This document shows positions 1,250 through 58,146 of a stretch of 58,146 nucleotides of DNA, one piece after another. How positions within the stretch are numbered: position 1 is the stretch's first letter; every line of letters starts with the position of its first letter. The position numbers and the translations under genes are program-made. The stretch lies in the IMG/VR virus record IMGVR_UViG_3300030102_005682, positions 1-58,146 of that record. One strand, written 5' to 3'. The stretch comes from a virus. Taxonomy: Duplodnaviria; Caudoviricetes. The notes beneath the pieces were generated by a model that saw only the letters and a program-made list of their open reading frames with translations, was not told the origin of the DNA and searched no databases.

Positions 1250-3162
1250 ATGAATTTAATTGGATACTACCAGAATACAAAGAAGAAAGGATTGAGCCCT
1301 ACATGAGCAACCAAATACCAATGTTTCAACCACCAAGTGAATGGTTGCCACCTGAGAGCATTCCTAATTTAAGTGATGCAAAAGAAATAGCAGTAGATTT
1401 AGAAACAAGAGATGAAAAAATAAAAGAGTTAGGACCTGGTTGGGCTACTGGAGAAGGAGATGTTATTGGTGTAGCTGTGGCTGTGGAGGGTTGGAAAGGT
1501 TATTTTCCTTTGAAACATCCTGGTGGTGGTAACTTTGATGAAAAAATATTTTATAGAAATTTTAAAAAATTAATGTCTTTGCCAAATCGTAAAATTTTTC
1601 ACAATGCAATGTATGACGTGGGTTGGCTAAAGCAAAAAGATATTCAGGTAAATGGTAATTATATTGATACAATGATTGCAGCTCAAATTATTGATGAGAA
1701 TCGTATGGGTTACTCTCTCAATGCTGTTGCTAAAGATTACCTGGGTGAAAAGAAAAACGAAAATTTATTGTATGAAGCTGCAAAAGAATGGGGTGTTGAT
1801 CCAAAAGGTGAGATGTTTAAACTCCCCGCTCAGTTCGTAGGACCCTATGCAGAACAAGACGCTGACCTGACTTTACGTTTATGGCATCGTTTAGAATCAG
1901 AAATATATAAACAAGATCTAGTTTCCGTCTTCTCTCTTGAAACCAATATACTTCCTGCGTTGATAGAGATGAAGTGGAGAGGCGTGCGGGTTGACACCAG
2001 TCGTGCTACTCAAATTAAAGAGAATCTTTTGGAAGAAGAGAATGCCCTCCTTACAAAAATAAAATCTATTTCAGGAGTTTCTGTTGATGTTTGGGCAGCA
2101 CGATCCGTCGCCAAAGCCTTTGATGCTATGGGTATACCTTACAATAGAACTGAAAAAGCAAAAGAGCCAAAGTTTGATAAAAATTTTCTAGCCACACATA
2201 ATAGTGATCTTGCCAAGCTTGTAGTTCAGACTCGTGAGATAAACAAGGCCAGGACCACATTTATTGACACAATTATGAAACATCAAAAGAACGGTCGTAT
2301 ACATGCAGAGATACATCAAATGAAATCTGATGTAGGAGGCACAGTGACCGGTAGATTTTCCATGAGCAATCCAAACTTACAACAGATACCTGCTCGTAAT
2401 GAAAAAATAGGTCCTATGATTAGAAGTTTATTTATACCTGAGGAGGGAGCGAAGTGGGGTTGTTTTGATTACAATCAACAAGAGCCCAGACTTGTGGCTC
2501 ACTATGCAGCTATAACCAGGAATGGCCTGGAGGGCGCTGATAAAGTTATTGATGGTTATAATAGTGACCTGGACTTTCATGGCACCGTGGCTGAAATGGC
2601 TAACATTGATCGTAAGATTGCAAAGACAATTAACCTAGGATTGTTTTATGGTATGGGTAAAGGTAAATTAAAAAGTCAATTAGGATTAAATGATGAGCAG
2701 GCTGATGAGTTATTTAAAACTTATCATAGTAGAGTTCCTTTTGTAAAACAGCTCACGGACCAAGCGTCAAAGTCTGCACAAGAAAATGGTTTTGTTAGAA
2801 CTTTACTTGGACGTAAGTGTCGTTTTGATTTGTGGGAGCCAAACAGTTTCGGTATTCATAAACCATTGAACAGGGACCAAGCGACAAAAGAACATGGAAA
2901 AAATATTAGAAGAGCTTTTACATACAAAGCGCTCAATAGATTAATACAAGGCAGTGCAGCTGACATGACCAAGAAAGCAATTTTAGATTTATATAAAGAA
3001 GGGATAGTCCCGCACATTCAAGTTCATGATGAGTTAGACTGTTCTTTTGACTCTGAGATCCAAGCAAAGAAGATTGAGAAGCTCATGGTTGAATGTGTTA
3101 ATTTAAAAGTTCCAGTAAAGGTAGATTGTGAAATTGGCGATAATTGGGGAGAAATCAAGTAA
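1246..3162 (+). CDS. polA: Family A DNA polymerase with 3'-5' exonuclease domain
   Basis: Exo motifs DLET, HNAMYD, YAEQD; polymerase motifs TGRFS, DYNQQEPR, RKIAKTINLGLFYG, IQGSAAD, VHDE. Start could be 1303. Confidence 0.96.
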   Translation: MNEFNWILPEYKEERIEPYMSNQIPMFQPPSEWLPPESIPNLSDAKEIAVDLETRDEKIKELGPGWATGEGDVIGVAVAVEGWKGYFPLKHPGGGNFDEKIFYRNFKKLMSLPNRKIFHNAMYDVGWLKQKDIQVNGNYIDTMIAAQIIDENRMGYSLNAVAKDYLGEKKNENLLYEAAKEWGVDPKGEMFKLPAQFVGPYAEQDADLTLRLWHRLESEIYKQDLVSVFSLETNILPALIEMKWRGVRVDTSRATQIKENLLEEENALLTKIKSISGVSVDVWAARSVAKAFDAMGIPYNRTEKAKEPKFDKNFLATHNSDLAKLVVQTREINKARTTFIDTIMKHQKNGRIHAEIHQMKSDVGGTVTGRFSMSNPNLQQIPARNEKIGPMIRSLFIPEEGAKWGCFDYNQQEPRLVAHYAAITRNGLEGADKVIDGYNSDLDFHGTVAEMANIDRKIAKTINLGLFYGMGKGKLKSQLGLNDEQADELFKTYHSRVPFVKQLTDQASKSAQENGFVRTLLGRKCRFDLWEPNSFGIHKPLNRDQATKEHGKNIRRAFTYKALNRLIQGSAADMTKKAILDLYKEGIVPHIQVHDELDCSFDSEIQAKKIEKLMVECVNLKVPVKVDCEIGDNWGEIK

Positions 3163-3255
3163 ATTAAATCGGTTTTAAGGACCGTACAGGGGTGTTTTAG
3201 ATGTGCCCGTGTATGATTGCATTCGGAAAAAAATTAAGAAAATAACTAATTAGGA

Positions 3256-3288
3256 CTTGTAATTACATTATGAGATAATATATAATTA
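3256..3288 (+). promoter_or_regulatory. Sigma70-like promoter of the RAMP/array operon
   Basis: TTGTAA (3257)-N18-TATAAT (3281); same CTTGTAATT-N14-TATATAATTA frame as 52923-52955. Confidence 0.7.
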
Positions 3289-3319
3289 GTTATAAACAGA
3301 AAGTAGAAAGGAGATCGAC

Positions 3320-3397
3320 ATGGAATATACAATACCAAGTTGGATCGAACTAATATTAATACAGAACGAGGAAATGGAGAGTGAATGCTCAGAGTAA
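3320..3397 (+). CDS. 25-aa acidic peptide (MEYTIPSWIELILIQNEEMESECSE)
   Basis: GAAAGGAG RBS directly after the promoter; below ORF-track cutoff. Confidence 0.5.
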   Translation: MEYTIPSWIELILIQNEEMESECSE

Positions 3398-3450
3398 TAA
3401 TCGGTTGTTGCATTGCTATTGCCATCTTCGTATGGATGGGATGGTTGTAA
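3385..3450 (+). CDS. 21-aa hydrophobic peptide (MLRVIIGCCIAIAIFVWMGWL)
   Basis: GGAG upstream; single TM-like stretch; TAATG coupling to next gene. Confidence 0.45.
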   Translation: MLRVIIGCCIAIAIFVWMGWL

Positions 3451-3611
3451 TGACAGACACGGGTAAATACAAATCGGTAGCGGTAAAGAAACCAAGCTAC
3501 CAAAAACTCAAAAGCATGGCTGAACAAGATTACAGATCTGTTGCTAGCTTTATAGAGTTCTTAGTTGACAAGGAAGCTGAAGAAAGGAGAAAGTCAAATG
3601 CCAACAAGTAA
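3450..3611 (+). CDS. Ribbon-helix-helix (CopG/Arc-like) DNA-binding protein
   Basis: YKSVAVKKPSYQKLKSMAEQDYRSVASFIEFLV has the beta-helix-helix RHH pattern; coupled ATG at 3450 preferred over 3381. Confidence 0.65.
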   Translation: MTDTGKYKSVAVKKPSYQKLKSMAEQDYRSVASFIEFLVDKEAEERRKSNANK

Positions 3612-4230
3612 AAAGAAAGAGCCAGAGAATATTCAAGTACCTGGAATAAAACTACAAGACTGCGTAATCACAGTGAAGGGGAGTTCACCTTTAATCTGTA
3701 ACAAGTGGTCAGAAAAAGCAAAACAAGAAATCAGAGATAAGCAGATGAAAATAGCTAAAGCTGCAGGTAGAGAAGCGAAGGATCCTGAAAAGTGTTTTAA
3801 CGATTCTTTGTATAAGATGCCTGATGGTAAGGGTTATGGTTTTCCTGCAATTGCATTTAAAGCAGCTGCGGTTAACGCTTGCTCTCACATTGAGGGTTTA
3901 ACAAAAGTCTCTGCACGTGGATCATTTCACATACCTTGTGATCTTATTCCTATTAAGGGTAAGCCAATCATGAGAGAGGATATGGTTCGTGTAGGTATGG
4001 GCGCTGCTGATCTTAGATACAGAGGTGAGTTTACAGATTGGGAAGCTAGTATTCCTGTTAAGTATAACTCTAACGCTTGGTCAATTGAACAGTTGATCAA
4101 CGTATTTAACGTTGCTGGATTTGCGTCTGGTGTTGGTGAGTGGAGACCACAGAAGAATGGTAACTTCGGTATGTTCTCAGTCACTGAGGTTCAAAAGATG
4201 GAATATAATGAGGAGGTAAAAATTGCCTAG
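3598..4230 (+). CDS. Stand-alone RAMP/Cas7-like RNA-binding protein (candidate effector)
   Basis: ITVKGSSPL, YGFPAIAFKAA, RYRGEFTDW and Gly-rich loop GFASGVGEWRPQKNGNFGMF occur in RAMP order; AAGGAG RBS before ATG 3598. Confidence 0.7.
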   Translation: MPTSKKKEPENIQVPGIKLQDCVITVKGSSPLICNKWSEKAKQEIRDKQMKIAKAAGREAKDPEKCFNDSLYKMPDGKGYGFPAIAFKAAAVNACSHIEGLTKVSARGSFHIPCDLIPIKGKPIMREDMVRVGMGAADLRYRGEFTDWEASIPVKYNSNAWSIEQLINVFNVAGFASGVGEWRPQKNGNFGMFSVTEVQKMEYNEEVKIA

Positions 4231-4732
4231 AGTAAAAGTAGTAAGTGATAAAGAGTACGTTTGGAGACAAGGTACAAGATATTCAGTGGAGGCACAGGTT
4301 GCTGGAGAGCATCTTGAGTCTTTGGAATACAAGCACGGGGCTCTCACCCCAGACCTGGTTGTGCGGGAGGCTAGAAAGAAGAGTTCACCTCTCCACCCAT
4401 GCTTTACGTGGGACGATACAAAAGCAGCTGAGAGCTATCGAAGGTTTGAGGCCAGGAAACTAACAGGATCAGTCCTCGTCGTGACTCAGCAAACAACTGA
4501 ACCTGTTCGTGCTTTTCATAGTGTTCCTATAACCATAACGTCTGACGATGAGCAGGCTCGAGGTTATGTTTCACTGGACGTGGCGATTGCAGACGAAGGT
4601 CATAGAAATCATTTGTTGCAACAAGCGTTTCGTGACTTAGCGGCCTGGAGAAATAAATATGCGGAGTTGAAAGAACTTCATAGTATTTTTTCCCAGGCAG
4701 ATCGCCTTGTGGAGAAATATTCTATTAGATAA
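4223..4732 (+). CDS. Uncharacterised partner protein coupled to the RAMP-like gene
   Basis: GGAGG RBS plus TTG overlapping the upstream stop; motif LTPDLVVREARKKSSPLHPCFTWDDTKAAESYR. Confidence 0.8.
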   Translation: MPRVKVVSDKEYVWRQGTRYSVEAQVAGEHLESLEYKHGALTPDLVVREARKKSSPLHPCFTWDDTKAAESYRRFEARKLTGSVLVVTQQTTEPVRAFHSVPITITSDDEQARGYVSLDVAIADEGHRNHLLQQAFRDLAAWRNKYAELKELHSIFSQADRLVEKYSIR

Positions 4733-4743
4733 TAGAATGATTG

Positions 4744-4773
4744 GTAGCGGAGGTAATACTCCGCTACTATTTT
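4744..4773 (+). terminator. Hairpin; weak intrinsic terminator or processing site
   Basis: GTAGCGGAG-gtaata-CTCCGCTAC followed by TATTTT. Confidence 0.55.
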
Positions 4774-4788
4774 AGAAAGGAAAGAAAG

Positions 4789-4893
4789 ATGGAAAAATAT
4801 AATTTTGATCACATAATTAAAATTTTATTAACTAAAGCAGGATGGATAAGGGTTCCTTTATACCTTCCAAGAAAGGAAGAAAATGGTAAGTAA
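4789..4893 (+). CDS. 34-aa hypothetical protein
   Basis: GAAAGGA RBS; MEKYNFDHIIKILLTKAGWIRVPLYLPRKEENGK. Confidence 0.5.
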   Translation: MEKYNFDHIIKILLTKAGWIRVPLYLPRKEENGK

Positions 4894-5116
4894 AGTAGGA
4901 TGGTCGATGGAAGAAGAGTTACAGGAATATAGAGAGTTATATGATAAAGTAGAAGAGGCTGTTATTGCATTAAAAGCAGCTCAAGAGTTAAAAGCTTTTC
5001 TTTATCTTGATCCTCTGCAACAAGAACATTTTAAAGTTACAATTCATGATCTTGAAAGTTTCTTGTCTGTGATAGATGAGGCTTCGACTGTCGAGATTGA
5101 TCAGTCGCCTGTATAG
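4883..5116 (+). CDS. Acidic helical hypothetical protein
   Basis: RBS-like GAAAGGA; the stop codon overlaps the first base of the array. Confidence 0.65.
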   Translation: MVSKVGWSMEEELQEYRELYDKVEEAVIALKAAQELKAFLYLDPLQQEHFKVTIHDLESFLSVIDEASTVEIDQSPV

Positions 5117-5537
5117 GCAGGAGAGGTGGGGCTGGGTGCGTTGTTATGAGGTAGTTTACGGCAGGAGTGGTGAGGTCGGGTACGTTCTGGTGGTAGCAAG
5201 GCGTGTTGTGGCAGGCTAGGTGAGTTATGGTGAGGTGAGATTAGTTCAGGAGTGGCAGGTGTGGTGAGTTGTGTCTCGGTGGGTTACGATTGCGGACAGG
5301 TTGAGTCAGTTCGGGGCATGGTGTTGTGAGGCGTGGATTGGTGAGGCAGGCCAGGTATGCCCAGGTTTGGTATGATCCGGACGGTTTAGGCAAGGCAGGC
5401 GGGGCGAGGTCGGGCTAGTTGCGGAGGGGTAGGTCACGGCAGGCGTGGTAAGTTTGAGCGAGGTATGGTCGGTCTTGTTGCGGCAGGTGGGGTGAGGCGC
5501 TGTCAGGTGAGGAGTGGTATAGGCATGTTGAGGCTGG
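5116..5537 (+). ncRNA. Array of nine GGCA-delimited units of GGY-NN pentamers (candidate guide-RNA array)
   Basis: GGCAGG at 5116, 5160, 5210, 5254, 5345, 5394, 5438, 5482; variant GGACAGG at 5294; terminal GGCTGG at 5532. Four units are exactly 4+8x5=44 nt. Repeat structure is certain; RNA function is inferred. Confidence 0.75.
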
Positions 5538-5550
5538 AAAGGAGTTTTGA

Positions 5551-5682
5551 ATGGATGATAAAATGAAAGCGTTGCAGGTTGTAAATGATTACATAAGATT
5601 TGACCGTGCATCATCGAACGTGACCGCAGCTTGGGAGACTGTGTTACGTTACATAAAGAGTTTGGAAAAGAGTGTAAAATAA
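5551..5682 (+). CDS. 43-aa hypothetical protein
   Basis: GAAAGGAG RBS immediately after the array; MDDKMKALQVVNDYIRFDRASSNVTAAWETVLRYIKSLEKSVK. Confidence 0.6.
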   Translation: MDDKMKALQVVNDYIRFDRASSNVTAAWETVLRYIKSLEKSVK

Positions 5683-5887
5683 TTATACTTGTAAGTGGAT
5701 TCTTTATCCCACTTAGATCCAAGAAAGCCGACACCTGGCTGGCCTAGTAGTGTTAACGAACCCCCTGGTGGTGTGACTGATGGAGAGACATCTTTCAGAA
5801 AGTCAAGAAAACAATTTTAAAAAAATCTTTTGAGGTTGGGATTGTAATTTTATATATTGGAGTTTCGACACTAAATAGGAGGTCCGA

Positions 5888-6016
5888 ATGGAAAACTTAG
5901 AAGAGAAATATCAAGAAGCGTTGCAAGCGATAGCTTACCTGCACAATGAGTTACTAGCTGTAAAGCATTGTCAGTGTGGCGATGATGAAGCAACAGAAGA
6001 GGATGACGAGGCCTAA
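5888..6016 (+). CDS. 42-aa acidic hypothetical protein
   Basis: AGGAGG RBS; MENLEEKYQEALQAIAYLHNELLAVKHCQCGDDEATEEDDEA. Confidence 0.6.
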   Translation: MENLEEKYQEALQAIAYLHNELLAVKHCQCGDDEATEEDDEA

Positions 6017-6228
6017 TACAGGCCTTCGTGTCCCTGCTCGAAGTATTTATTTTTTAAGTGCCTGTCCCAGAAAGACTTTCCATTCGCTACAATGATGTTC
6101 CACTCTCGATGACTAAAGCGCTCTGTTGAGCCATCTTTGTATTCCACCTCGTAGACCATGTCATGACCTCCTGAGTCAGTCTGTTGTTCAAACACCCTTA
6201 GCTGCTTAATTATATCTTTTAGCTTCAT
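6013..6228 (-). CDS. Hypothetical protein
   Basis: Last gene of an overlapping minus-strand cluster. Confidence 0.65.
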   Translation of the reverse strand: MKLKDIIKQLRVFEQQTDSGGHDMVYEVEYKDGSTERFSHREWNIIVANGKSFWDRHLKNKYFEQGHEGLY

Positions 6229-6487
6229 GGTATTTTAAATACTTAATCTCTTTTACCATACCTTTGGGAATAATTGCAACCCTTCCTCCTTCCTGGCCAC
6301 CATCATCACACCAGTCTGCCATCAAAGATATTTGAGTTTCATCGTCTTTTACTAGCCAACCTATTGAAAAACAACCCGCAGGGGTCTTTTTTACAATGTC
6401 TTTGTATTCTACCCACCCAGAAAACGGCTCGGTAGCGTCTTCCCATCGGACTATCACAATCGGTGTAGTCTTCAGGTTAAATTTCAT
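6206..6487 (-). CDS. Conserved-looking phage hypothetical protein
   Basis: IVRWEDA..GW, SIGWLVKDD, IIPKGMVKEIK pattern; ATGA coupling at 6487. Confidence 0.7.
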   Translation of the reverse strand: MKFNLKTTPIVIVRWEDATEPFSGWVEYKDIVKKTPAGCFSIGWLVKDDETQISLMADWCDDGGQEGGRVAIIPKGMVKEIKYLKYHEAKRYN

Positions 6488-7122
6488 GCTTTCTTTCTTA
6501 AGGTATTTTGACCAGGGACCAATTTTAAACATTTAGTGTGTTCTGTTCCTTTTGATACTGCGAACCATTGCTCGTGTCCTTGTATGAAATCAATTGAGCT
6601 GTTACCTGGGCACTTTCCTTTTGAAAAAGTATCATTCACAGCCTGTTGAACTGATGCTAATGCCATGTCATCGCCGACCATGGTCCCGCCTTCTTTAAGC
6701 TTGGGCCACCAGTTTAGTATGTCTTCCATAACTGGCTCATACTCGTGGGCTCCGTCTATAATGATGGCTTGAAAATGTTTGTTATGAAATCTTTTTAATG
6801 TGTTTACATCATCTGATCTTGATTTAACAGGTGTTACTATACCTTTGTCTATGAATACTTGGCAGTTTTTTAAGAACTTGTCATAGAAACCACCTACGAT
6901 ATCTAAGTTTGCATGTTCAGAGCTACCTTCGAAAGTGTCTAATGCGTAGACATGTAGCTTTTTACCTGAGTTGATAATGCTAGTGGCCAGGTAAGATGTT
7001 GACCTGCCCATGAAACTACCTATCTCTAAGATCTCATCACCGTCTTCACATAGATCTATGAGTTGGTCGTACGCTTCGTGCATGTTAAACCATCCAGGTA
7101 TTTTAAAGTAAGTTTGTTTCAT
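6484..7122 (-). CDS. Class I SAM-dependent methyltransferase (Methyltransf_24-like)
   Basis: LEIGSFMGRST, DTFEGS, IIIDGAHEY, LKEGGTMVGDD. Confidence 0.85.
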   Translation of the reverse strand: MKQTYFKIPGWFNMHEAYDQLIDLCEDGDEILEIGSFMGRSTSYLATSIINSGKKLHVYALDTFEGSSEHANLDIVGGFYDKFLKNCQVFIDKGIVTPVKSRSDDVNTLKRFHNKHFQAIIIDGAHEYEPVMEDILNWWPKLKEGGTMVGDDMALASVQQAVNDTFSKGKCPGNSSIDFIQGHEQWFAVSKGTEHTKCLKLVPGQNTLRKKA

Positions 7123-9077: not shown

Positions 9078-9900
9078 AAAGTTCCCGCGCTCCCGCTCGC
9101 GAGCAGCTTTTCTTCTCCTGAATCACGATTCAACACTACATCTTGAAAAATCCGAAGCGACTAACACCGGATCTTGTGTTATGCCTATGATAGAACTGGG
9201 AGCGGCCCAGGCAGGATGCAGCTGGAAATCCTGAAAAAATCCGAAGGTCAAGTCTCCCCATTTTTGGTATGATATATAATAAATTAACCGGATCCCGCTC
9301 GCGCCGGAGTTGGGTGAAAGTCCTTTTTTCAAGGGTTTTTGCCGAATCGTGATCCGTGATTCAGGGTAAAAGTGCCGATATACTTGAAAAATCCGAAGCT
9401 GCGGTCTCCCCATTTTTGAGATGGTATATAATATAAGTGGGAGCTCCGGGCCAGGTGAGTTGTTCGATTTTCTTCATGAAAAGGCTTGAAAAATAAGGGC
9501 AAATCACTATATATATAGCATGCAGCTGCATCCCTGGTGAAGATTAGCAGGTGATACAGCTCAGTCAGGAGAAAGATATGAATTTATTAGCAATTGCAGG
9601 TCTCATTTGGGCATTCCTCTTAGCCATTGGGTTCGAGATGAAAGGGGGGACCTTGATAATACTGGTCTTCTTGGTCATCGCTGGACTGGTCGAAGGTGCA
9701 CGTGAGGTAGGGGGTTTCATCAATGTGCTCCTATAAAATCCGAAGCACGAGTATCCCCGTTGATATGGGACGTACTAATAAAAAAAGTTCCCGCTCGCGA
9801 GCAGCGCGGGTAAAAATCTTCGGAAAATCCGAAGGTTGAGTATCCTTGATAACATAGGATCTTACCAATAGAAAATCTGGGCGCAGACCAGCTGATGCCA
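9029..9900. repeat. Degenerate multi-motif repeat region upstream of terL
   Basis: AAAATCCGAAG at 9147, 9236, 9388, 9735, 9824 (variant at 9029); CCCGCTCGCG at 9092, 9294, 9790. Confidence 0.8.
9578..9736 (+). CDS. Small two-TM membrane protein
   Basis: AGGAG RBS; two hydrophobic segments; lies between repeat copies. Confidence 0.6.
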   Translation: MNLLAIAGLIWAFLLAIGFEMKGGTLIILVFLVIAGLVEGAREVGGFINVLL

Positions 9901-18785: not shown

Positions 18786-18976
18786 TGGATATATTTCAAT
18801 TATTCACTTTGTTTAAAAAACAAATAGAAGAGCGTGAGGCAAATTTAGTTGAGACAGTAACTTCTGGTGTCAAAGATTGGGACGAATATAAGTATTTGAC
18901 AGGCAAGTTAGAAGCATTAAAGTCAACAAAATTAGAAATGCAAGAAACAATGAAGAGGTTTGAAGAACATGAGTAA
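18785..18976 (+). CDS. Hypothetical protein preceding GroES
   Basis: GVKDWDEYKYLTGKLEAL; coupled GTG start. Confidence 0.7.
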   Translation: MDIFQLFTLFKKQIEEREANLVETVTSGVKDWDEYKYLTGKLEALKSTKLEMQETMKRFEEHE

Positions 18977-19376
18977 ATTAATATTGCCTGATTATTTGGC
19001 AAAAAAAGAAGAGAAAGCAAAAGAATTATCCGATATGCAAAAACTACCTCAACCAACAGGTTGGAGGCTTTTAATAATGCCACATACTGGTATCCGAAAA
19101 ACAAAAGGTGGTGTTCACCTTACGGATAAGGCACAAGAAGAAATTCAATTGACAACTAATGTAGGATTAGTCTTGAAAGTTGGACCAGATGCGTATAAAG
19201 ATAGTAATAGATTTCCTGAGGGTCCTTGGTGCAAGGAAAAAGATTGGGTTCTTTTTGCCAAGTATGCGGGCTCTAGGATTAAGATCGAAGGTGGGGAGCT
19301 AAGACTTTTGAACGATGATGAAGTTTTAGCAGTTATAGAGGATCCAGAAGACATATTACATGCAACATATAAATAG
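18969..19376 (+). CDS. groES: Phage co-chaperonin GroES
   Basis: PTGWRLLI, TKGGVHL, VLKVGP, VLFAKYAG, LLNDDEVLAVI. Confidence 0.92.
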   Translation: MSKLILPDYLAKKEEKAKELSDMQKLPQPTGWRLLIMPHTGIRKTKGGVHLTDKAQEEIQLTTNVGLVLKVGPDAYKDSNRFPEGPWCKEKDWVLFAKYAGSRIKIEGGELRLLNDDEVLAVIEDPEDILHATYK

Positions 19377-35135: not shown

Positions 35136-35723
35136 TTGAGCGATACTTACGACATATTTCGCATACCTGTTTTTGCAGAGTATACAGATTTAGATAATAA
35201 AGCCATGAGTGATTATTCTTTATCGCTTATGGAAAAAGATGAAGGACGTAAACTTTCTAACGAAGGAGGATGGCAGTCCAAAGATTTGACAGGTGTGCAC
35301 ATGCCTCTCAACGATTTATTTAAAAACATTACTACCGCAAGTAATAACTTTGCATCACAATTATTCTTACCTAAACAACAAATAAGTAATATTTGGATTA
35401 ATATAAATGGCTACAAAGATTTTAATACAAGTCATAGACATCCTAATTCTTTTTTGTCAGGTGTTTACTATTTACAAACACATGAAAATTGTGGTTGCAT
35501 ATCAATGACTAATCCTTGTGCATCTCTTATTGAAGGCTATTGGTCCCCACATTTAACTGTTGTTAATGAAAATAAACTTAATTTAAAATGGGAGTTTCTA
35601 GCGGAAACAGGCAGAATGTTTATCTTTCCGAGTTGGATGGAGCATGAAGTAAAACCCAACTTAGACAAAGATAAAAAAAGAATTTCAATATCTTGGAACA
35701 CATGTGTTGATAAAGGAGAATAG
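35136..35723 (+). CDS. 2OG-Fe(II) oxygenase (TIGR02466-like)
   Basis: HRHPNSFLSGVYY, FPSWMEHEV, RISISWN. Confidence 0.85.
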   Translation: MSDTYDIFRIPVFAEYTDLDNKAMSDYSLSLMEKDEGRKLSNEGGWQSKDLTGVHMPLNDLFKNITTASNNFASQLFLPKQQISNIWININGYKDFNTSHRHPNSFLSGVYYLQTHENCGCISMTNPCASLIEGYWSPHLTVVNENKLNLKWEFLAETGRMFIFPSWMEHEVKPNLDKDKKRISISWNTCVDKGE

Positions 35724-50398: not shown

Positions 50399-50629
50399 TT
50401 ATTTTTTAAGTTTAGATTTGCTTTTTTGAGACTCTAGATGATCTTCTATTGCATCCCATACCTCTACATTAGACCAATGATTTAGAACAGCTTTAGACAC
50501 GTCTTCATGTAAAACTTTTAAAGTTCTAACGCCTATTGGTACAGGTTTTCCTTTGTTTTCATAAAGATGATCAATCTCTTCTCCAGTTAAACTTAAATAA
50601 ACTTCACCGCTTTGATACATTATTCTCAT
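50399..50629 (-). CDS. Hypothetical protein
   Basis: ATGA coupling to the upstream gene at 50626-50629. Confidence 0.65.
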   Translation of the reverse strand: MRIMYQSGEVYLSLTGEEIDHLYENKGKPVPIGVRTLKVLHEDVSKAVLNHWSNVEVWDAIEDHLESQKSKSKLKK

Positions 50630-51468
50630 ACTCCACACATCCCTTCGCAATCGTTAATGGCAACGCCACCTAGCTCGTCAAACATTGATATTTGTTTGTC
50701 TTCTGCCTTTTTATCTATATCTATTTCGCTTAAAGGCTTACCCTCTTTGGTAACAAACACGGTATAGCCTTCACGCATACCTTTGAACCCACCATTGATT
50801 TTCTTTTCAAATTCAATGACGTGTTGAAACTCTTCAGGTGAATTATCTTTTAAATATTTCCATTCTTTCCATGTTTTATAAGGACAAAAGGTACAGGCTG
50901 ATCTTGGTGGTTTTGGCATTTCGTGGTCATCAAACCATTTTTTACACATCGCTCTAGTTATGTTTCTTTCAACCAAAGGATATACATTTCTAATCCAAGG
51001 TTTCCTGGCCTCTTTAACACGATACATCTCGTCACGAGATATACCCATGATCATATCAACAACAACGCCTTTCTTAACACGTTGTCCTTTTTTATATCCC
51101 ATGTGAGTTCTAATAAATTTATGAATAGGTTCTATTTTGTAATGACCTGTACACTGCCTGGTAAGAATACCCATGCTATTTTTCTTTGGATCTTTTGTAA
51201 AAAAAGGAGGGGTTCTTGAAGTATGTAAACCCTGCGCAGCTTCTATAGAATCTTGTTCTATATCTCCTGCACTGATTACATGAATAGGATAATTTTTTAT
51301 TTTACTCTTCATCCAATCGAACCAATCATAAACTTCTTTTGGTTCTGCCATGGTGTCAGCAAACACAGCAAAATCAGGCATGGGACCTATCTCACCATAC
51401 TCATACATAAATGCCAAAGTGCTTGATTGCACTCCCGCTCCTAAAGATAATACGTTCAAATCAGCCAT
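50626..51468 (-). CDS. PP-loop (PAPS-reductase/adenine-nucleotide alpha-hydrolase-like) protein
   Basis: VLSLGAGVQS, FADT..E, RQCT..YKI.P, SACTFCPY, terminal CEGMCGV. Confidence 0.75.
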   Translation of the reverse strand: MADLNVLSLGAGVQSSTLAFMYEYGEIGPMPDFAVFADTMAEPKEVYDWFDWMKSKIKNYPIHVISAGDIEQDSIEAAQGLHTSRTPPFFTKDPKKNSMGILTRQCTGHYKIEPIHKFIRTHMGYKKGQRVKKGVVVDMIMGISRDEMYRVKEARKPWIRNVYPLVERNITRAMCKKWFDDHEMPKPPRSACTFCPYKTWKEWKYLKDNSPEEFQHVIEFEKKINGGFKGMREGYTVFVTKEGKPLSEIDIDKKAEDKQISMFDELGGVAINDCEGMCGV

Positions 51469-52898
51469 TGTTTTAGCTCCTCTCCCATGACCTCTGTCGC
51501 CAAGTTAATCTTATTTCTTAAACTTTGTACAATCTTCTCATCCACAGTGCCTTCAGTTACTAAGTCAACATAAGTGACTTTTGATGTTTGTCCTATGCGG
51601 TGCACTCTATCCTCCGATTGTAACCGGACTTCTAAGTCATAAGAGTTACTGTAATATATCACAGTGTGGCTCTTGGTTAAAGTTAAACCATAGCCTCCTG
51701 TTTTAGGATTACCCACAAAATAACGAAGCTCTTCGCCATTTTGAAACTCATCCACAATTTGTTGTCTTTCTTCGCTCGGTGTGTCTCCATAAAAAGTAGC
51801 AACTGATCGTGGACCGTGCACCTTTGAAATTTCTGTTGCAATTGTTTGAATGTCATGTCTATAGTTTGCCCAAATCAAAACTTTGCCTGATGTCTCATCT
51901 AATATATTCATTAATTCTTTTAACCTGTTATTCTCTACTGCTTTTACTTCTCCGTTATCTAGCTTCACATGGCCACAAACTATCTGGTGTAGCCTTAGTA
52001 TTTGTGTTAATGCTGATAGCGCTGTCAATCTTTCTCCCTCTAATTCTGCTATGGCCATTCTTTTCATAGTTACATACATCTCTAATTGTTTTGGAGTCAT
52101 TGATACATTACGAACTTGATATATTTTCTCAGGTAGATCTAAACAATCATCTTTTAAAACTCTGTATGAAAAATTATCTAACTTATCGGCTAACTCACCA
52201 AGTCTTTGATAACTGACTATCATACTAAACTGATGTGTAGGCATATTTCTTTTTACCATTACACAATATCTATTCTTAAATGTCCAAAAGGAACTAAACC
52301 CTAGTAAGTCCTCACTTAAAAAAGCACATTGTGCATATAGATCTATTGGTGAACGAGTGACAGGAGAGCCTGTCATAATACGTCTGTATTTGATTAGCGG
52401 GGATAATTTTAAAATATTTTTAGTCCTGGCCGCAGTAGGATTTTTTATAGTAGTGCTTTCATCTACAGCCACCATGGCTTTGTGTGATAACAAAAACTTC
52501 TTTGCAAAATCAACACCTTTCTTTGTGCTGAAAGCCTCCACGTTCATTAGCAAAATTTTAAAATTATCATTAGGTAAAAAAACTTTTTCTAATTTTTTTC
52601 TGTCCTCTGCTTTATTGTCTGACCCCCACACGAATATGTCAGGAGTTATGTGCTCAGGTAAATGACTTTTAAGTTCTCTTTTCCAATTTTTATAAACAGT
52701 CTTAGGCGCTATGACCATTAGCGTTTCAATATCGCCTCTATCCCACAACCAGCTAGCGTTATATATTGCAACTAATGTTTTACCTGTGCCCATCTCCATA
52801 AACCAAGCAAACTCCTCCTTATCAAGGGCAGCGCCCAGTGCAGCTAATTGATGAGCAAAAGGCTCAGTCTTAAACGGATAGTCCTGTAATTTTTTCAT
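51456..52898 (-). CDS. SNF2-family SF2 helicase
   Basis: MEMGTGKT, VDEST, TGSP, GYGLTL, QSEDRVHRIGQ. Confidence 0.92.
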   Translation of the reverse strand: MKKLQDYPFKTEPFAHQLAALGAALDKEEFAWFMEMGTGKTLVAIYNASWLWDRGDIETLMVIAPKTVYKNWKRELKSHLPEHITPDIFVWGSDNKAEDRKKLEKVFLPNDNFKILLMNVEAFSTKKGVDFAKKFLLSHKAMVAVDESTTIKNPTAARTKNILKLSPLIKYRRIMTGSPVTRSPIDLYAQCAFLSEDLLGFSSFWTFKNRYCVMVKRNMPTHQFSMIVSYQRLGELADKLDNFSYRVLKDDCLDLPEKIYQVRNVSMTPKQLEMYVTMKRMAIAELEGERLTALSALTQILRLHQIVCGHVKLDNGEVKAVENNRLKELMNILDETSGKVLIWANYRHDIQTIATEISKVHGPRSVATFYGDTPSEERQQIVDEFQNGEELRYFVGNPKTGGYGLTLTKSHTVIYYSNSYDLEVRLQSEDRVHRIGQTSKVTYVDLVTEGTVDEKIVQSLRNKINLATEVMGEELKQWLI

Positions 52899-54739: not shown

Positions 54740-56242
54740 TTGAAATACGAGAAATTTAGAGAGATATTTAAAGGTTTAGATAGAGCCTATGGTGTCTATT
54801 ATAAAGGTGAAACAAAGGAGAATGGAAAGCTTTCTGGTAAAGCCTACATTAAAAAAGAGCCTTTGTTTGATCAATACTATGATGCTCATCTAGACGGTAA
54901 GGACCCTGGACTAGGGGTAATTCCTATCATGGACGACTCCAATTGTTTTTGGGGTTGCTGTGATATTGATAAGTATCCTCTAGATTTCAAAGCTATAATA
55001 AAAAAATTAAGAAACAAAAATATTCCTATGATTGTGTGTCGTTCTAAGAGTGGCGGGGCACATCTATTTCTTTTTACTAAACAGCCTGTGCCTGCATCTT
55101 TAATGAGAACTAAGTTATCAGAGATAGCTGCCTCTTTAGGATATGCAGATTGTGAAATATTTCCAAAGCAAGAAGAGATAAAAAAAGATAGAGGAGACAC
55201 AGGTAATTTTTTAAACCTACCTTATCACGGTGGTGATGAGAGTATGAGATATGCCATGGATGATGAGGGTAATTCATTATCTGTGGAAGAGTTTTATCAA
55301 CTATATGATAAATATGTTTTGACTCCAAAAGAACTAAAAGATGTAAAGGTTGTTGAAGAGTCAAGAGAGTTAAAGGATGGTCCACCTTGTTTGGAAACTT
55401 TGATGGCTGAGGGTTTCCCTGAAGGTACAAGAGACAATGCTTTGTATCAATATGCAGTGTATGCAAAGAAAGCTTTTCCTGATCACTGGCAAGATAAGAT
55501 ATCTGAGTTCAATCATAAATATATGGACCCAGCTTTATCTGTTAACCAGGTAAATAAAACAATCAGACAGCATGAAAAGAAAGAGTATGCGTACAAATGT
55601 AAAGATCAACCAATGTGTTCACATTGTAATTCTAATTTATGTCGTCAAAGACAGTTTGGTATTGGTGTAGATTATGAACATAAGTTTGGTGATTTAACGA
55701 AGTATCAATCCGATGAATCTGTTTGGTTTCTAAACGTTGATGGTAGGCGTTTAGAGTTAACCACAGATAGCCTGTTCGAGCAGTCTAAGTTTCGAAAAGC
55801 TTGTATGGATAATTTGAATGTACTCCCAAATCCATTGAGTAATAGAGACTGGACTGCTCGTATTCAGCAGCTACTACAATCAGTCGAAATAATAGAAATG
55901 CCCAAAGAGGTTAGAAAGGAAGGTCGCTTTGAACAACATCTCGATAATTTCATTAATGATCAAGGTAAGGCACTCAATATTGAAGAAATTCTTATTGGAA
56001 AAGCCTGGTCAGAAGACGGAAAAATCTACTTCAAAATGTCTTCACTAGAAGAATATTTAATGAAGAAGAGGTTTACTGAGTTTACTACAACTCAGATGGG
56101 AGCACGTATCAAACAAATAGGTGGTGGCGATACTCGTAAGAGAGTTCGTGGTCGCTTGGTTTACATGTGGTACGTGCCCGACCAAGAGAAAGAAGAGGTA
56201 AACTTAGACTTACCTTCTATGAAGGAGGAGATACCATTTTAA
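54740..56242 (+). CDS. AEP-superfamily primase with PriCT-like and Cys-cluster regions
   Basis: WGCCDID, RSKSGGAHLF, EIFPKQ, GNFLNLPY, PPCL, EGTRDNAL; GGGAG RBS favours TTG 54740. Confidence 0.8.
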   Translation: MKYEKFREIFKGLDRAYGVYYKGETKENGKLSGKAYIKKEPLFDQYYDAHLDGKDPGLGVIPIMDDSNCFWGCCDIDKYPLDFKAIIKKLRNKNIPMIVCRSKSGGAHLFLFTKQPVPASLMRTKLSEIAASLGYADCEIFPKQEEIKKDRGDTGNFLNLPYHGGDESMRYAMDDEGNSLSVEEFYQLYDKYVLTPKELKDVKVVEESRELKDGPPCLETLMAEGFPEGTRDNALYQYAVYAKKAFPDHWQDKISEFNHKYMDPALSVNQVNKTIRQHEKKEYAYKCKDQPMCSHCNSNLCRQRQFGIGVDYEHKFGDLTKYQSDESVWFLNVDGRRLELTTDSLFEQSKFRKACMDNLNVLPNPLSNRDWTARIQQLLQSVEIIEMPKEVRKEGRFEQHLDNFINDQGKALNIEEILIGKAWSEDGKIYFKMSSLEEYLMKKRFTEFTTTQMGARIKQIGGGDTRKRVRGRLVYMWYVPDQEKEEVNLDLPSMKEEIPF

Positions 56243-57324
56243 AACATTTAGATTTATTTTCAGGTATAGGTGGGTTTAGTCTTGGTTTAGAAGAAGCAGG
56301 ATTAGTTGATACGGTAGCTTTTTGTGATTGGGAGGCTTACTGTCAAGAAGTTTTAAGAAAACATTGGCCAGGCGTGCCAGTGTATGGAGATATAAAGGAG
56401 CTAACACATGAAAGACTCAGAGCAGATGGAATTAATTCCATCGACATCATCACAGGAGGATACCCCTGTCAGCCTTTCTCAGTCGCTGGACGACAAAAAG
56501 CTGAAAAGGATCCGAGACATCTCTGGCCAGAGTATTTTAGGCTTGTCAAAGAACTCAGGCCAACTTGGGTCATTGGAGAAAACGTTAGTGGACACGTTAA
56601 ACTCGGTCTCGACACCGTACTCGAGAACTTGGAGAGTGAAGGTTACTCAACAAGGACGTTTAGTATTTCAGCTTCGAGCATCGGTGCCAACCATCAACGG
56701 GAAAGGATCTGGGTTATTGCCCACGCCAACGACACAGGAGATAGAACATCACGACATCAATTTAACAAAGACAGGGAGAAGATTATCAAAGGACGGGAAG
56801 AGCAGTCACAGTTTGAACTTAGCAGATACGGTGAGGGTTTGGAGAACTCCAGATGCTCACAGTGGCCGTGGAGCTTCGAGCAAGGAAAGAATGAAGATGA
56901 AATTAGAGAAGGGTATGCCAATCAGCCTGAACGATCAGGTGGCACATCCGAACTTGATGTGGCCGACTCCAAGAGCATCAGCAGCGATGGCAGAGGACAT
57001 CAAGAATATACAGAAGCGGGGCACGGAGAGGGGCAGGTTAGAGGAGAGAGTGGCTTTAAGATGGCCGACTCCAACTACAAACGACAGCAAGAACAACGGG
57101 GGAGCATCTCAACTACGAGCAGGCAGGAGAGGTTTTGGAAAGAATCTGAATGCCGTAGTAGCGCAGAGATCTCAAAATGGTGGGAGTCTGAACCCGACGT
57201 GGGTCGAGTGGCTCATGGCTTACCCAAAAGGGTGGACAGACTTAAGTGCTTAGGTAATGCAGTTGTACCTATTATTCCTTATCTGATCGGTAAAAGTATT
57301 CTAGAGACATACGACATTGAGTAA
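56236..57324 (+). CDS. C5 cytosine DNA methyltransferase, alpha chain (motifs I-VIII and X)
   Basis: DLFSGIGG, GGYPCQPFS, GENV, HQRERIW, LKCLGNAV; start proposed at ATT 56236 (ORF track gives 56167). Confidence 0.9.
   Translation: MLKHLDLFSGIGGFSLGLEEAGLVDTVAFCDWEAYCQEVLRKHWPGVPVYGDIKELTHERLRADGINSIDIITGGYPCQPFSVAGRQKAEKDPRHLWPEYFRLVKELRPTWVIGENVSGHVKLGLDTVLENLESEGYSTRTFSISASSIGANHQRERIWVIAHANDTGDRTSRHQFNKDREKIIKGREEQSQFELSRYGEGLENSRCSQWPWSFEQGKNEDEIREGYANQPERSGGTSELDVADSKSISSDGRGHQEYTEAGHGEGQVRGESGFKMADSNYKRQQEQRGSISTTSRQERFWKESECRSSAEISKWWESEPDVGRVAHGLPKRVDRLKCLGNAVVPIIPYLIGKSILETYDIE
56408..57253 (+). CDS. Overlapping +1-frame methyltransferase beta chain (TRD-like repeats and motif IX)
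   Basis: AAGGAG 7 nt before ATG; four (L/W)(P/R)TP repeats; LNPTWVEWLMAYPKGWT. Confidence 0.75.
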   Translation: MKDSEQMELIPSTSSQEDTPVSLSQSLDDKKLKRIRDISGQSILGLSKNSGQLGSLEKTLVDTLNSVSTPYSRTWRVKVTQQGRLVFQLRASVPTINGKGSGLLPTPTTQEIEHHDINLTKTGRRLSKDGKSSHSLNLADTVRVWRTPDAHSGRGASSKERMKMKLEKGMPISLNDQVAHPNLMWPTPRASAAMAEDIKNIQKRGTERGRLEERVALRWPTPTTNDSKNNGGASQLRAGRRGFGKNLNAVVAQRSQNGGSLNPTWVEWLMAYPKGWTDLSA

Positions 57325-58146
57325 TACAAACATTATCTTTGGTCCACCAGGGACAGGTAAGACGACTAGGTTATTGCGTATCGTGGAAGAAGAATTGGAA
57401 CGTGGAACACCGCCCGACCGCATAGGATATTTTGCATTTACCCGCAAAGCTTCTCGTGAAGCGATTGATCGAGCCTGCACAAAATTTAATTTACAAAGAA
57501 AAGATTTTTCTAATTTTAGAACTTTACATAGTCTTGCCTATCACTCTTTATCTTTAGATAAAACAAATGTTATGAAAGATGAGCATTACAATGAGTGCTC
57601 TGACTTACTTCAAGTTAAATTAAAAAACGCAGATAAAACTGTAGACAATTACGGTGCCTTTGTAGCTGAGGATGTTTATATGCAACTCATAAATTTAGCT
57701 AAGGTTACAAACGAGCCTTTAAATAAAGTGTTTCATGAGTATGGTCACGTGCCTGGGGGTTGGTTGAAACTGGACTATGTTGATAGGGCTTTAAAAAAAT
57801 ATAAAGAAGAAAGAAACTTATTTGATTATACAGATATGGTTATGGAATATAACAAACAAAAGCCACAGTGTAAGTTAGAAGTATTGATTGTTGATGAGGC
57901 TCAGGACTTATCTTACATACAGTGGGAGATGATAAACAATATGAAAGATCAAGTAGAAAGAGTTTACATAGCTGGAGATGACGATCAAGCCATATTCAAA
58001 TGGTCAGGTGCACAGCCTGACTTTCTAATAAATTTAGAAGGTAAAAGAGAAATACTCAATCAATCATATAGAGTGCCGATAGCAGTGCATCGAGTGGCAA
58101 ATAGTTTAGTGTCAAGGATAGATAATAGGGTGCCAAAAGAATACAT
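57317..58146 (+). CDS. UvrD/Rep-like helicase, 5' part (runs off the end)
   Basis: TTG start; GPPGTGKTT Walker A, FAFTRKA, FRTLHSL; in frame with the repeat of 1-558. Confidence 0.92.
   Translation, partial: MSNTNIIFGPPGTGKTTRLLRIVEEELERGTPPDRIGYFAFTRKASREAIDRACTKFNLQRKDFSNFRTLHSLAYHSLSLDKTNVMKDEHYNECSDLLQVKLKNADKTVDNYGAFVAEDVYMQLINLAKVTNEPLNKVFHEYGHVPGGWLKLDYVDRALKKYKEERNLFDYTDMVMEYNKQKPQCKLEVLIVDEAQDLSYIQWEMINNMKDQVERVYIAGDDDQAIFKWSGAQPDFLINLEGKREILNQSYRVPIAVHRVANSLVSRIDNRVPKEY
57589..58146. repeat. Right copy of imperfect terminal direct repeat
   Basis: Aligns to 1-558 at about 92% identity. Confidence 0.95.

Follow-up and report, generated by a model that had tools for sequence, protein, structure and literature searches.

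The IMG/VR record IMGVR_UViG_3300030102_005682 represents a tailed phage (Duplodnaviria; Caudoviricetes), and its whole length of 58,146 nucleotides (positions 1 to 58,146, here called the window) was analysed. Towards its left end, and all on one strand, lies a module composed of a small RHH-like open reading frame (ORF), the gene vipr (3598-4230), the accessory gene vap, and an array of eight guides followed by a terminal unit (5116-5540). We conclude that this locus, found in a marine phage akin to the HTVC023P-type pelagiphages, is very probably a VIPR (Viral Interference Programmable Repeat) system. VIPR was published in 2026 (10.64898/2026.04.26.720920, 10.64898/2026.04.26.720927, 10.64898/2026.10.15.759431; sources available in part), and this locus is a further example of a kind already described. 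In the systems characterized there, as far as the available text describes them, a minimal RAMP protein, Vipr, polymerises on a vrRNA made of YNNGG pentamers, gripping each GGY, while the exposed NN pairs read double-stranded DNA (dsDNA) with every third base skipped, and transcription is silenced (10.64898/2026.04.26.720920, 10.64898/2026.04.26.720927).

The frame at 3598-4230 (+) is open and stop-free over 210 aa, with AGGAG lying 8 nt 5′ of the ATG at 3598; the ORF listing begins in the same frame at an upstream TTG, at 3565. At E≤0.001 a search finds 4242 homologues of its product, Vipr; the closest are about 60% identical and none carries a name. An alignment of 27 homologous sequences contains 55 invariant columns, and together these results show that this is a real gene and not a chance frame. 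Within PHROGs it corresponds to phrog_4652 (E 9e-25), a family listed as of unknown function, and no model in Pfam, NCBIfam (2026) or PADLOC (2023) matches it. We interpret Vipr as a minimal Cas7-like RAMP and a predicted subunit of a filament that binds guide RNA.

An earlier interpretation of this DNA, made without database searches (the sequence-only reading), had proposed a RAMP fold for this protein from the order of four motifs, all of which are present in the translation of the ORF: ITVKGSSPL (residues 24-32), FPAIAFKAA (residues 82-90), a thumb-like segment MREDMVRVGMGAADLRYR (residues 125-142) and a terminal Gly-rich loop GVGEWRPQKNGNFG (residues 178-191). An AlphaFold2 monomer model built on the 27-sequence alignment (pLDDT 80.4, pTM 0.75) has an RRM-like core, in which strand 1 is formed by residues 19-28, a helix by residues 84-97, a beta-hairpin thumb by residues 123-145, and a Gly-rich G-loop by residues 178-192 before the last strand. 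The quoted motifs sit at the first strand, the thumb and the G-loop, as had been suggested, with FPAIAFKAA at the helix.

Comparisons of the model with solved structures bear out the proposed fold, and the best matches are to Cas7-group RAMPs and not to the confidently matched unrelated fold that would have spoken against it. Foldseek returns 73 matches in the PDB at E≤0.001, with values down to 4e-6, and those listed are all Cas7-group effector chains (type VII Cas7, Csm3, Cmr4, Cas7-11). Among 48,161 representative chains compared by VIA-align, the highest scores belong to Cmr4 (Z 11.3), Csm3 (Z 11.1, 10.5) and type VII Cas7 (Z 9.7), the Cmr4 match being to 6s6b_I with 154 residues aligned at a root-mean-square deviation of 3.5. 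Vipr is therefore predicted to have a Cas7/Csm3-type RAMP fold. It shares with the Cas7 RAMPs of class 1 CRISPR-Cas systems (Csm3, Cmr4, type VII Cas7, Csf2) the RRM core, the beta-hairpin thumb and the Gly-rich loop, with VIA Z scores of 9-11 over 130-160 residues, but identity is only 6-15% and the gene here stands without a CRISPR array or other cas genes. The RNA register also differs, VIPR using 5 nt (3 held, 2 exposed) and the Cas7 group 6 nt (5 paired, 1 flipped).

A search of the sequences of solved chains gives a single significant match, PDB 36pp (36pp_D, ‘SUSP1 Vipr protein’), with E 4.7e-5 from the single sequence and 5e-8 from the profile. The alignment pairs GVGEWRP with GVGDWRP of the SUSP1 protein, and places E181-W182-R183 and R142 opposite D177-W178-R179 and R138 of SUSP1; these four residues are invariant or nearly so in the 27 homologues. 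In the available text on SUSP1, D177, W178, R179 and R138 hold both guanines of each repeat (10.64898/2026.04.26.720927). The similarity to the type II VIPR of Escherichia phage SUSP1 (PDB 36pp) includes a protein of about 200 aa, a G-loop of the form GVG[D/E]WRP, the thumb Arg, and a vap gene beside vipr.

The array, which is non-coding and lies 0.9 kb 3′ of vipr at 5116-5540 (+), occupies a GT-rich tract that is the sole one of its type in the genome. Nine GRCAGG marks (at 5116, 5160, 5210, 5254, 5295, 5345, 5394, 5438 and 5482), spaced 41-50 nt apart, set out eight guides of 41-50 nt and a conserved terminal unit that reaches into the ribosome-binding site of the following small ORF. The guides consist of 8-9 pentamers of the form Y-N-N-G-G/T plus a 4-nt CAGG, and the step from one guide to the next, GG-CA-GG, is one base short of a pentamer. 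Runs of GG with period 5, sought on both strands of the 58-kb window, occur only at 5164-5520 (+), and shuffled windows contain at most 3-6 units. The array RNA is no more structured than its shuffles (z +1.45), Rfam gives no match over 3100-6000 at E≤1, and blastn of 3100-5600 against cultured phages finds none. The sequence-only reading had suggested modelling the protein with a (GGUNN)n RNA; this pointed to the correct kind of RNA, but did not link the array to the gene.

How general this organization is can be seen in 17 related IMG/VR loci that we fetched, whose Vipr proteins are 85-99% identical. The same type of array lies 0.9-1.2 kb 3′ of vipr in 15 of these, and the remaining two end sooner. 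The 119 units of these arrays (84 distinct) have lengths of 44, 49, 54 and 64 nt, corresponding to 8, 9, 10 and 12 pentamers plus CAGG, and some units contain one extra base. A register logo of 73 distinct units shows a pyrimidine at position 1 (76-96%), variable positions 2 and 3, G at position 4 (73-95%), and G or T at position 5. The 73 units fall into 33 guide families whose order varies among the phages in a manner resembling the shuffling of cassettes; in the window the order is F09, F00, F08, F11, F12, F04, F03, F01 and the terminal unit. Within families the columns that vary are 23/128 for Y, 18/128 for the fifth base (K), 6/128 for G, 7/128 for N1 and 3/128 for N2, and it is the NN letters of orthologous guides that are best kept (10/256 variable columns, compared with 41/256 at Y and K). 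Drift is thus tolerated on the scaffold letters and avoided at the two letters that would confer specificity, and this period-5 constraint is a pattern that protein coding cannot produce.

Arrays of the same architecture are also present in cultured actinophages. Mycobacterium phage Donkeykong gp50 and Gordonia phage Ecliptus gp20 are homologues of vap (hhalign probability 99.3% and 99.7%) encoded beside vipr, and both loci contain CAGG-punctuated CNNGG/YNNGG arrays beside vipr. The architecture is seen both at 38% and at 62% GC. The Donkeykong array (NC_051648.1, 4531-4820) has five 12-pentamer CNNGG units with CAGG steps, directly 5′ of the vipr homologue gp49. We note that it lies inside coding sequences annotated as gp47 and gp48 (‘hypothetical protein’), probably a mis-annotation common to the 27 Mycobacterium phage records that contain the gene.

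Could the pentamer tract be a coding or compositional artefact, either a Gly/Trp/Val-rich ORF or a G-rich spacer that has no function as RNA? Listed ORFs do cross it, at 5076-5219 (+) and 5306-5734 (-), and Tandem Repeats Finder, run over 3000-6500, reports nothing there, a silence that we attribute to the repeat copies being too dissimilar. The periodicity is 5 and not 3, however, and the unit lengths step by 5; the units are reshuffled between phages in the manner of cassettes, and their substitutions keep to the pentamer register. The same architecture also recurs at the two GC contents given above, and we regard an artefact as exceedingly improbable.

A second alternative takes Vipr to be an orphan Cas7 that a class 1 CRISPR-Cas system left behind, one lacking its own guide RNA and unrelated to the G-rich tract downstream. 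It would agree with the structural matches, the best of which are CRISPR Cas7 proteins, and with the surroundings of the gene, which contain no CRISPR array. Yet the only sequence match among solved structures is to Vipr and not to a Cas7, the family, a large one, goes together with vap and a pentamer array in unrelated phages, and the tract has both the period-5 constraint and the in-phase matches to real genes described below; we therefore consider this explanation very unlikely. A repeat search of the whole genome finds no CRISPR-type array, just two unrelated two-copy repeats, and scans of 74 ORFs or ORF pieces with PHROGs, Pfam and NCBIfam reveal no cas family, with Cas1, Cas2, Cas3, Cas5, Cas6, Cas8 and Cas10 all missing, in agreement with the earlier statement that no cas genes are recognisable. 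The description of the protein as ‘solo’ holds to that extent, but needs qualifying, because Vipr belongs to a family with a conserved accessory gene and has its own guide array: vap adjoins it and the pentamers lie 0.9 kb downstream.

Several features characteristic of VIPR thus occur together here: the RAMP fold, homology to Vipr including the contact residues, at least four pentamers, a fixed scaffold with variable NN, a vap gene, and targets that fit a 1-nt skip phased on the codon wobble position. The closest published arrangement is the ‘staggered’ array, where the end of one vrRNA also serves as the beginning of the following vrRNA (10.64898/2026.04.26.720920, text and fig. S18 legend). 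As in that description, a Vipr RAMP and vap accompany back-to-back YNNGG-type vrRNAs with neither spacer nor tail, and the CAGG step fits a guide end that doubles as the start of the next guide. Three features seen here are not mentioned in the available text: the fifth base of the pentamer can be G or T; the guides are short, with 8-9 NN in the window (up to 10 in relatives), and stand beside 12-pentamer terminal units; and the GRCAGG mark is conserved from marine phages to actinophages. The main texts of 10.64898/2026.04.26.720920 and 10.64898/2026.10.15.759431 do not contain the shuffling of guide cassettes, the GRCAGG mark or the G/T at position 5, though their supplements may. The published tree divides VIPR into seven types (I-VII), and a total of 99 VIPR-like period-5 clusters has been reported elsewhere (10.64898/2026.10.21.760802, available in part).

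The differences from SUSP1 are larger. Sequence similarity is confined to the C-terminal third of the protein (E 5e-8), and the SUSP1 vrRNAs, in the available text, are separate units, each about 100 nt long, that contain 9-16 repeats and end in a 3′ pseudoknot tail, whereas the window has a tail-less array of eight guides and a terminal unit. The SUSP1 guides converge on one satellite, whereas the guides that can be read here match motifs of widespread genes (HIT, tRNA-Ser). Common to both are the 1-nt skip falling on the codon wobble position and the lack of self-targeting.

To read the guides we converted those with a clean register to the published scan form (NN, one wildcard, NN and so on), outside collections being read with a 1-nt skip. 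No self-targeting site with ≤1 mismatch was found at skips of 0-2 in the window or the 17 related loci, and a scan at skip 3 merely re-finds the arrays. The most informative guide is the sixth (family F04, 5351-5399, +), whose nine NN pairs spell the catalytic motif of HIT proteins, H-I-H-L-I-P-R-Y-K. With its 18 fixed bases it has two exact matches in the viral collection, and both fall in codon phase 0 on HIHLIPRYK of a HIT protein (PF01230, E 1e-22), the GC contents of the two viruses being 43% and 28%; about 0.5 chance matches are estimated for 18 bases, scaled from non-convergent 16-base guides (6-10 matches). A 10-NN variant of the guide in the related locus L009 matches at 19 of 20 bases.

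Cellular genomes contain at least 120 exact sites for this guide. Among the matches listed, 116 of 120 read H[IM]H[LF]IPRY[KN], and for 111 of the 120 the site falls within an open frame of ≥80 aa in phase 0; all 73 of the 111 that have full flanks and were scanned with Pfam belong to PF01230. Among 401 genomes from a single phylum, the guide has a site with ≤1 mismatch in 10 and the reversed pattern in none, and by eye roughly half of the sites in those 10 read as the HIT motif. We also note that a 360-kb viral record (L020) has at 1101-1126 a second site, matching at 16 of 18 bases, 400 nt upstream of its exact match to the guide, which may represent a tandem HIT paralogue.

The first guide (family F09, 5122-5165, +) matches the D-arm region of tRNA-Ser genes. 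It has 29 viral matches, of which 11 share one 23-mer, and in 10 of these 11 records a tRNA-Ser gene (8 with anticodon UGA) overlies the match, which falls at tRNA positions ~6-28 and in the same sense. The other clusters of matches derive from single phage lineages and non-wobble phases, as expected of chance and redundancy of the collection. When the matched tRNA-Ser sequence is compared with cultured phages identity is at most 86%, giving no clue to the host.

Guides of the relatives add a third target. Seven of them decode to x-Q-I/F-G-N-A-V-P/A/T, a motif of C-5 DNA methylases (..QIGNAVP..), and one (F02 of the related locus L004, with 20 fixed bases) has a single viral match, which lies in phase 0 within a C-5 cytosine methylase (PF00145, E 1e-59), at the sequence THIGNAVPVE. 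The window encodes a C-5 cytosine methylase of its own at 56167-57321 (+) (PF00145, E 5e-44), as well as a second S-adenosylmethionine methyltransferase (Methyltransf_24) at 6484-7119 (-). The motif in its C-5 enzyme, CLGNAVVPIIP, is unlike those targeted by the sister phages and is unmatched by their guides.

Taken together, guide 6 is written on the HIT catalytic motif and guide 1 on a tRNA-Ser gene, and the locus provides independent support, derived purely from sequence, for the 1-nt skip rule outside type II. Because the skipped base lies on the codon wobble position, a guide of this form recognises a peptide motif irrespective of synonymous codons. Targets in HIT, C-5 methylase and tRNA-Ser genes do not appear in the main texts of 10.64898/2026.04.26.720920 and 10.64898/2026.10.15.759431, though the supplements may hold them.

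By analogy with the published systems, we propose that the array would give a transcript that is cleaved at the CAGG steps or close to them, yielding vrRNAs of about 44-50 nt in the manner of a staggered array, and that one Vipr protomer would bind each pentamer. The G-loop residues E181-W182-R183 together with R142 of the thumb would grip the G-G/T-Y bases and leave both N bases exposed, and the NN pairs would then read dsDNA with every third base skipped, forming a gapped R-loop triplex that blocks transcription. The likely use of such a system is the silencing of the targeted genes in rival phages or other mobile elements that share the cell, or else in the host itself.

Several observations weigh against the interpretation as a VIPR system with these targets. 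On the protein side, the G-loop residues 183-186 have pLDDT below 50 and are modelled with low confidence, and detectable sequence likeness to SUSP1 Vipr spans only about 65 C-terminal residues. At position 35 this protein has N where 24 of the 27 homologues have H, and its alignment with H17 of SUSP1 was not achieved. For vap, Foldseek gives no match at E≤0.001, and Pfam, NCBIfam (2026) and PADLOC (2023) give none. The processing of the array, formation of a filament, binding of DNA and silencing are carried over from the type II system of SUSP1, and contigs of four metatranscriptome runs do not extend over 5116-5540, which makes them uninformative as to expression of the array or small RNAs. 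As to the targets, only two of the six window guides tested give convergent ones, and the tRNA-Ser match rests on 16 fixed bases, with a chance of some tRNA match among the five window guides scanned till then of about 1% (a rough estimate). No viral record is matched by both of these guides, and none of the nine viral records with the tRNA-Ser match, which are mostly fragments, has a site for the HIT guide within 3 mismatches. The four remaining guides were set aside. F03 (5400-5443) has 6 scattered viral matches and no convergence; F00 (5166-5215), read through its 6-nt unit, has one match, at the chance level; and F01 (5444-5487), a 16-base guide, has 10 viral matches with no clear convergence. 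F08 (5216-5259) has 19 matches, nine of them in sense phase 0 and belonging to unrelated families or none (Pfam on seven of the nine), and a GA-rich pattern like that of F08 is enriched in sense phase 0 regardless. A prediction of the Vipr homo-trimer without RNA scores 0.31 against a mark of 0.42, and neither supports nor opposes binding.

In metagenomes F01 has at least 118 matches. The largest in-phase cluster among the matches listed has eight members and reads VNC[DE]MRFA, the others being redundant. The eight loci (L211, L238, L244, L249, L254, L283, L291 and L317) vary in their wobble bases and have the context HKQYSHYAKTVNCDMRFAIYLPPQ, which presumably resembles the N-terminus of esterase D / S-formylglutathione hydrolase; we treat this cluster as a lead only.

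Whether such guides are directed at rival phages or at the host deserves separate consideration. One explanation is that the system is aimed at the host and not at rival phages, silencing the HIT hydrolase, tRNA-Ser and, in sister phages, C-5 methylases belonging to restriction or defence systems, for takeover or counter-defence. The HIT guide has its at least 120 exact cellular sites and only two in the viral collection, each of the 14 control genomes contains HIT domains, and the phage has no HIT gene of its own, its C-5 methylase meanwhile escaping the guides of its relatives. Moreover, among the PADLOC entries the targeted C-5 methylase is similar to DISARM DrmMII, Druantia DruM and type II methylases, and PADLOC also includes ThsC, a defence component of the HIT family (a generic match, E 1e-10 to 1e-16). 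The cellular collection is, however, an estimated 35 times larger than the effective viral one, so that the raw cellular and viral counts cannot separate the two readings; viral contigs, too, carry HIT, C-5 methylase and tRNA-Ser genes; and the natural targets published in the available text are satellites, prophages and other VIPR loci (10.64898/2026.04.26.720920). We regard a system aimed at the host and not at rival phages as possible but rather unlikely.

A broader idea, offered tentatively and as one that may well prove incorrect, is that the guides of this widespread Vipr clade, which spans marine pelagiphage-like phages and actinophages, are written against the most conserved codon strings of widespread genes, namely the HIT catalytic triad, the ..QIGNAVP.. 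motif of C-5 DNA methylases and the tRNA-Ser D-arm, and not against one rival. If so, one short guide could silence a gene family irrespective of codon usage, in whichever host, prophage or co-infecting phage carries it. VIPR would then act at the level of motifs in host takeover or counter-defence, as in switching off modification methylases, a role beyond the published targeting of satellites and prophages.

VIPR is a newly described form of RNA-guided DNA recognition that has been proposed as the ancestor of CRISPR RAMP effectors, and this locus would provide a complete and compact example in an abundant type of marine phage. The naming of concrete natural target motifs (HIT, C-5 methylase, tRNA-Ser) is what raises the idea of motif-level targeting of accessory genes in hosts or rivals. 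Since the CAGG-punctuated, tail-less array and vap are common to marine phages and to cultured Mycobacterium and Gordonia phages, the latter are possible laboratory models.

The remaining components of the module surround vipr closely. The best promoter-like site upstream of the operon, TTGTAA-18-TATAAT (3257-3286, +), matches at 10 of 12 positions and is a consensus match only. The small RHH-like ORF (3441-3611, +), whose end overlaps the start of vipr, is a candidate regulator of the module; its Pfam matches to RHH_5 and RHH_7 are weak and below cut-off (E 0.004-0.014), and it is found directly 5′ of vipr in all 16 related loci that extend that far, with 70-100% identity. The vap gene (4223-4732, +; 169 aa; phrog_15946) overlaps the vipr stop by 8 nt, is translationally coupled to vipr, and adjoins it in 17 of 17 related loci. 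Metatranscriptome contigs from marine RNA libraries of two studies cover the 3′ end of vipr and vap, bridging the junction between them. The vap model (pLDDT 83.7) has an alpha/beta domain and a long C-terminal helix, and its matches in VIA are weak, winged-helix-like ones (Z 6.2).

Just 3′ of vap lies a terminator-like hairpin (4742-4769, +) with an 11-bp stem followed by UAUUUU (-19.7 kcal/mol, z -6.55; none of 200 shuffles folds as well). It is followed by a small ORF of 77 aa (4883-5116, +) which matches no family and whose TAG stop overlaps the first GGCAGG of the array. This ORF is kept in 8 of the 17 related loci, and four others have a tRNA-Cys gene in its place, ending 5-6 nt 5′ of the first GGCAGG (L005, 3092-3165; L007, 3299-3372; L009, 5753-5824; L011, 5508-5581). 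The position of the tRNA suggests that in these phages the array may be co-transcribed with it, with tRNA processing freeing the first guide.

The phage itself was described in the sequence-only reading as small, which is not the case: the record is a whole IMG/VR virus of 58 kb, about 98% complete, and is thus mid-sized. A UvrD-type helicase gene is split over the record ends (57317-58144 and 2-1249), the 3′ end of the record holding profile positions 168-454 of phrog_1967 and the 5′ end positions 318-674, from which it follows that the genome is complete and circularly permuted. It encodes terminase, portal, head and tail proteins, PolA, a primase and methylases. The nearest cultured relatives are the Pelagibacter phages HTVC027P and HTVC023P (TerL 63-65% and PolA 51-53% identical), and the host is for this reason probably a marine bacterium, possibly SAR11; neither phage is among the 34 phage records that have a Vipr homologue.

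Elsewhere in the genome, a PAPS-reductase-like gene (phrog_424) overlaps a large helicase gene (phrog_62) at 50626-52895 (-), and the pair may form a DNA-modification or auxiliary module. The structural genes are interspersed with one for a GroES-like co-chaperonin (18960-19373, +; best E 1e-13, below curated cut-offs) and one for a TIGR02466-family protein (35136-35720, +; E 4e-27). Upstream of the terminase region there is an imperfect 36-nt direct repeat (9735-9770 and 9824-9859), with 75% identity between its copies and a spacing of 89 nt.

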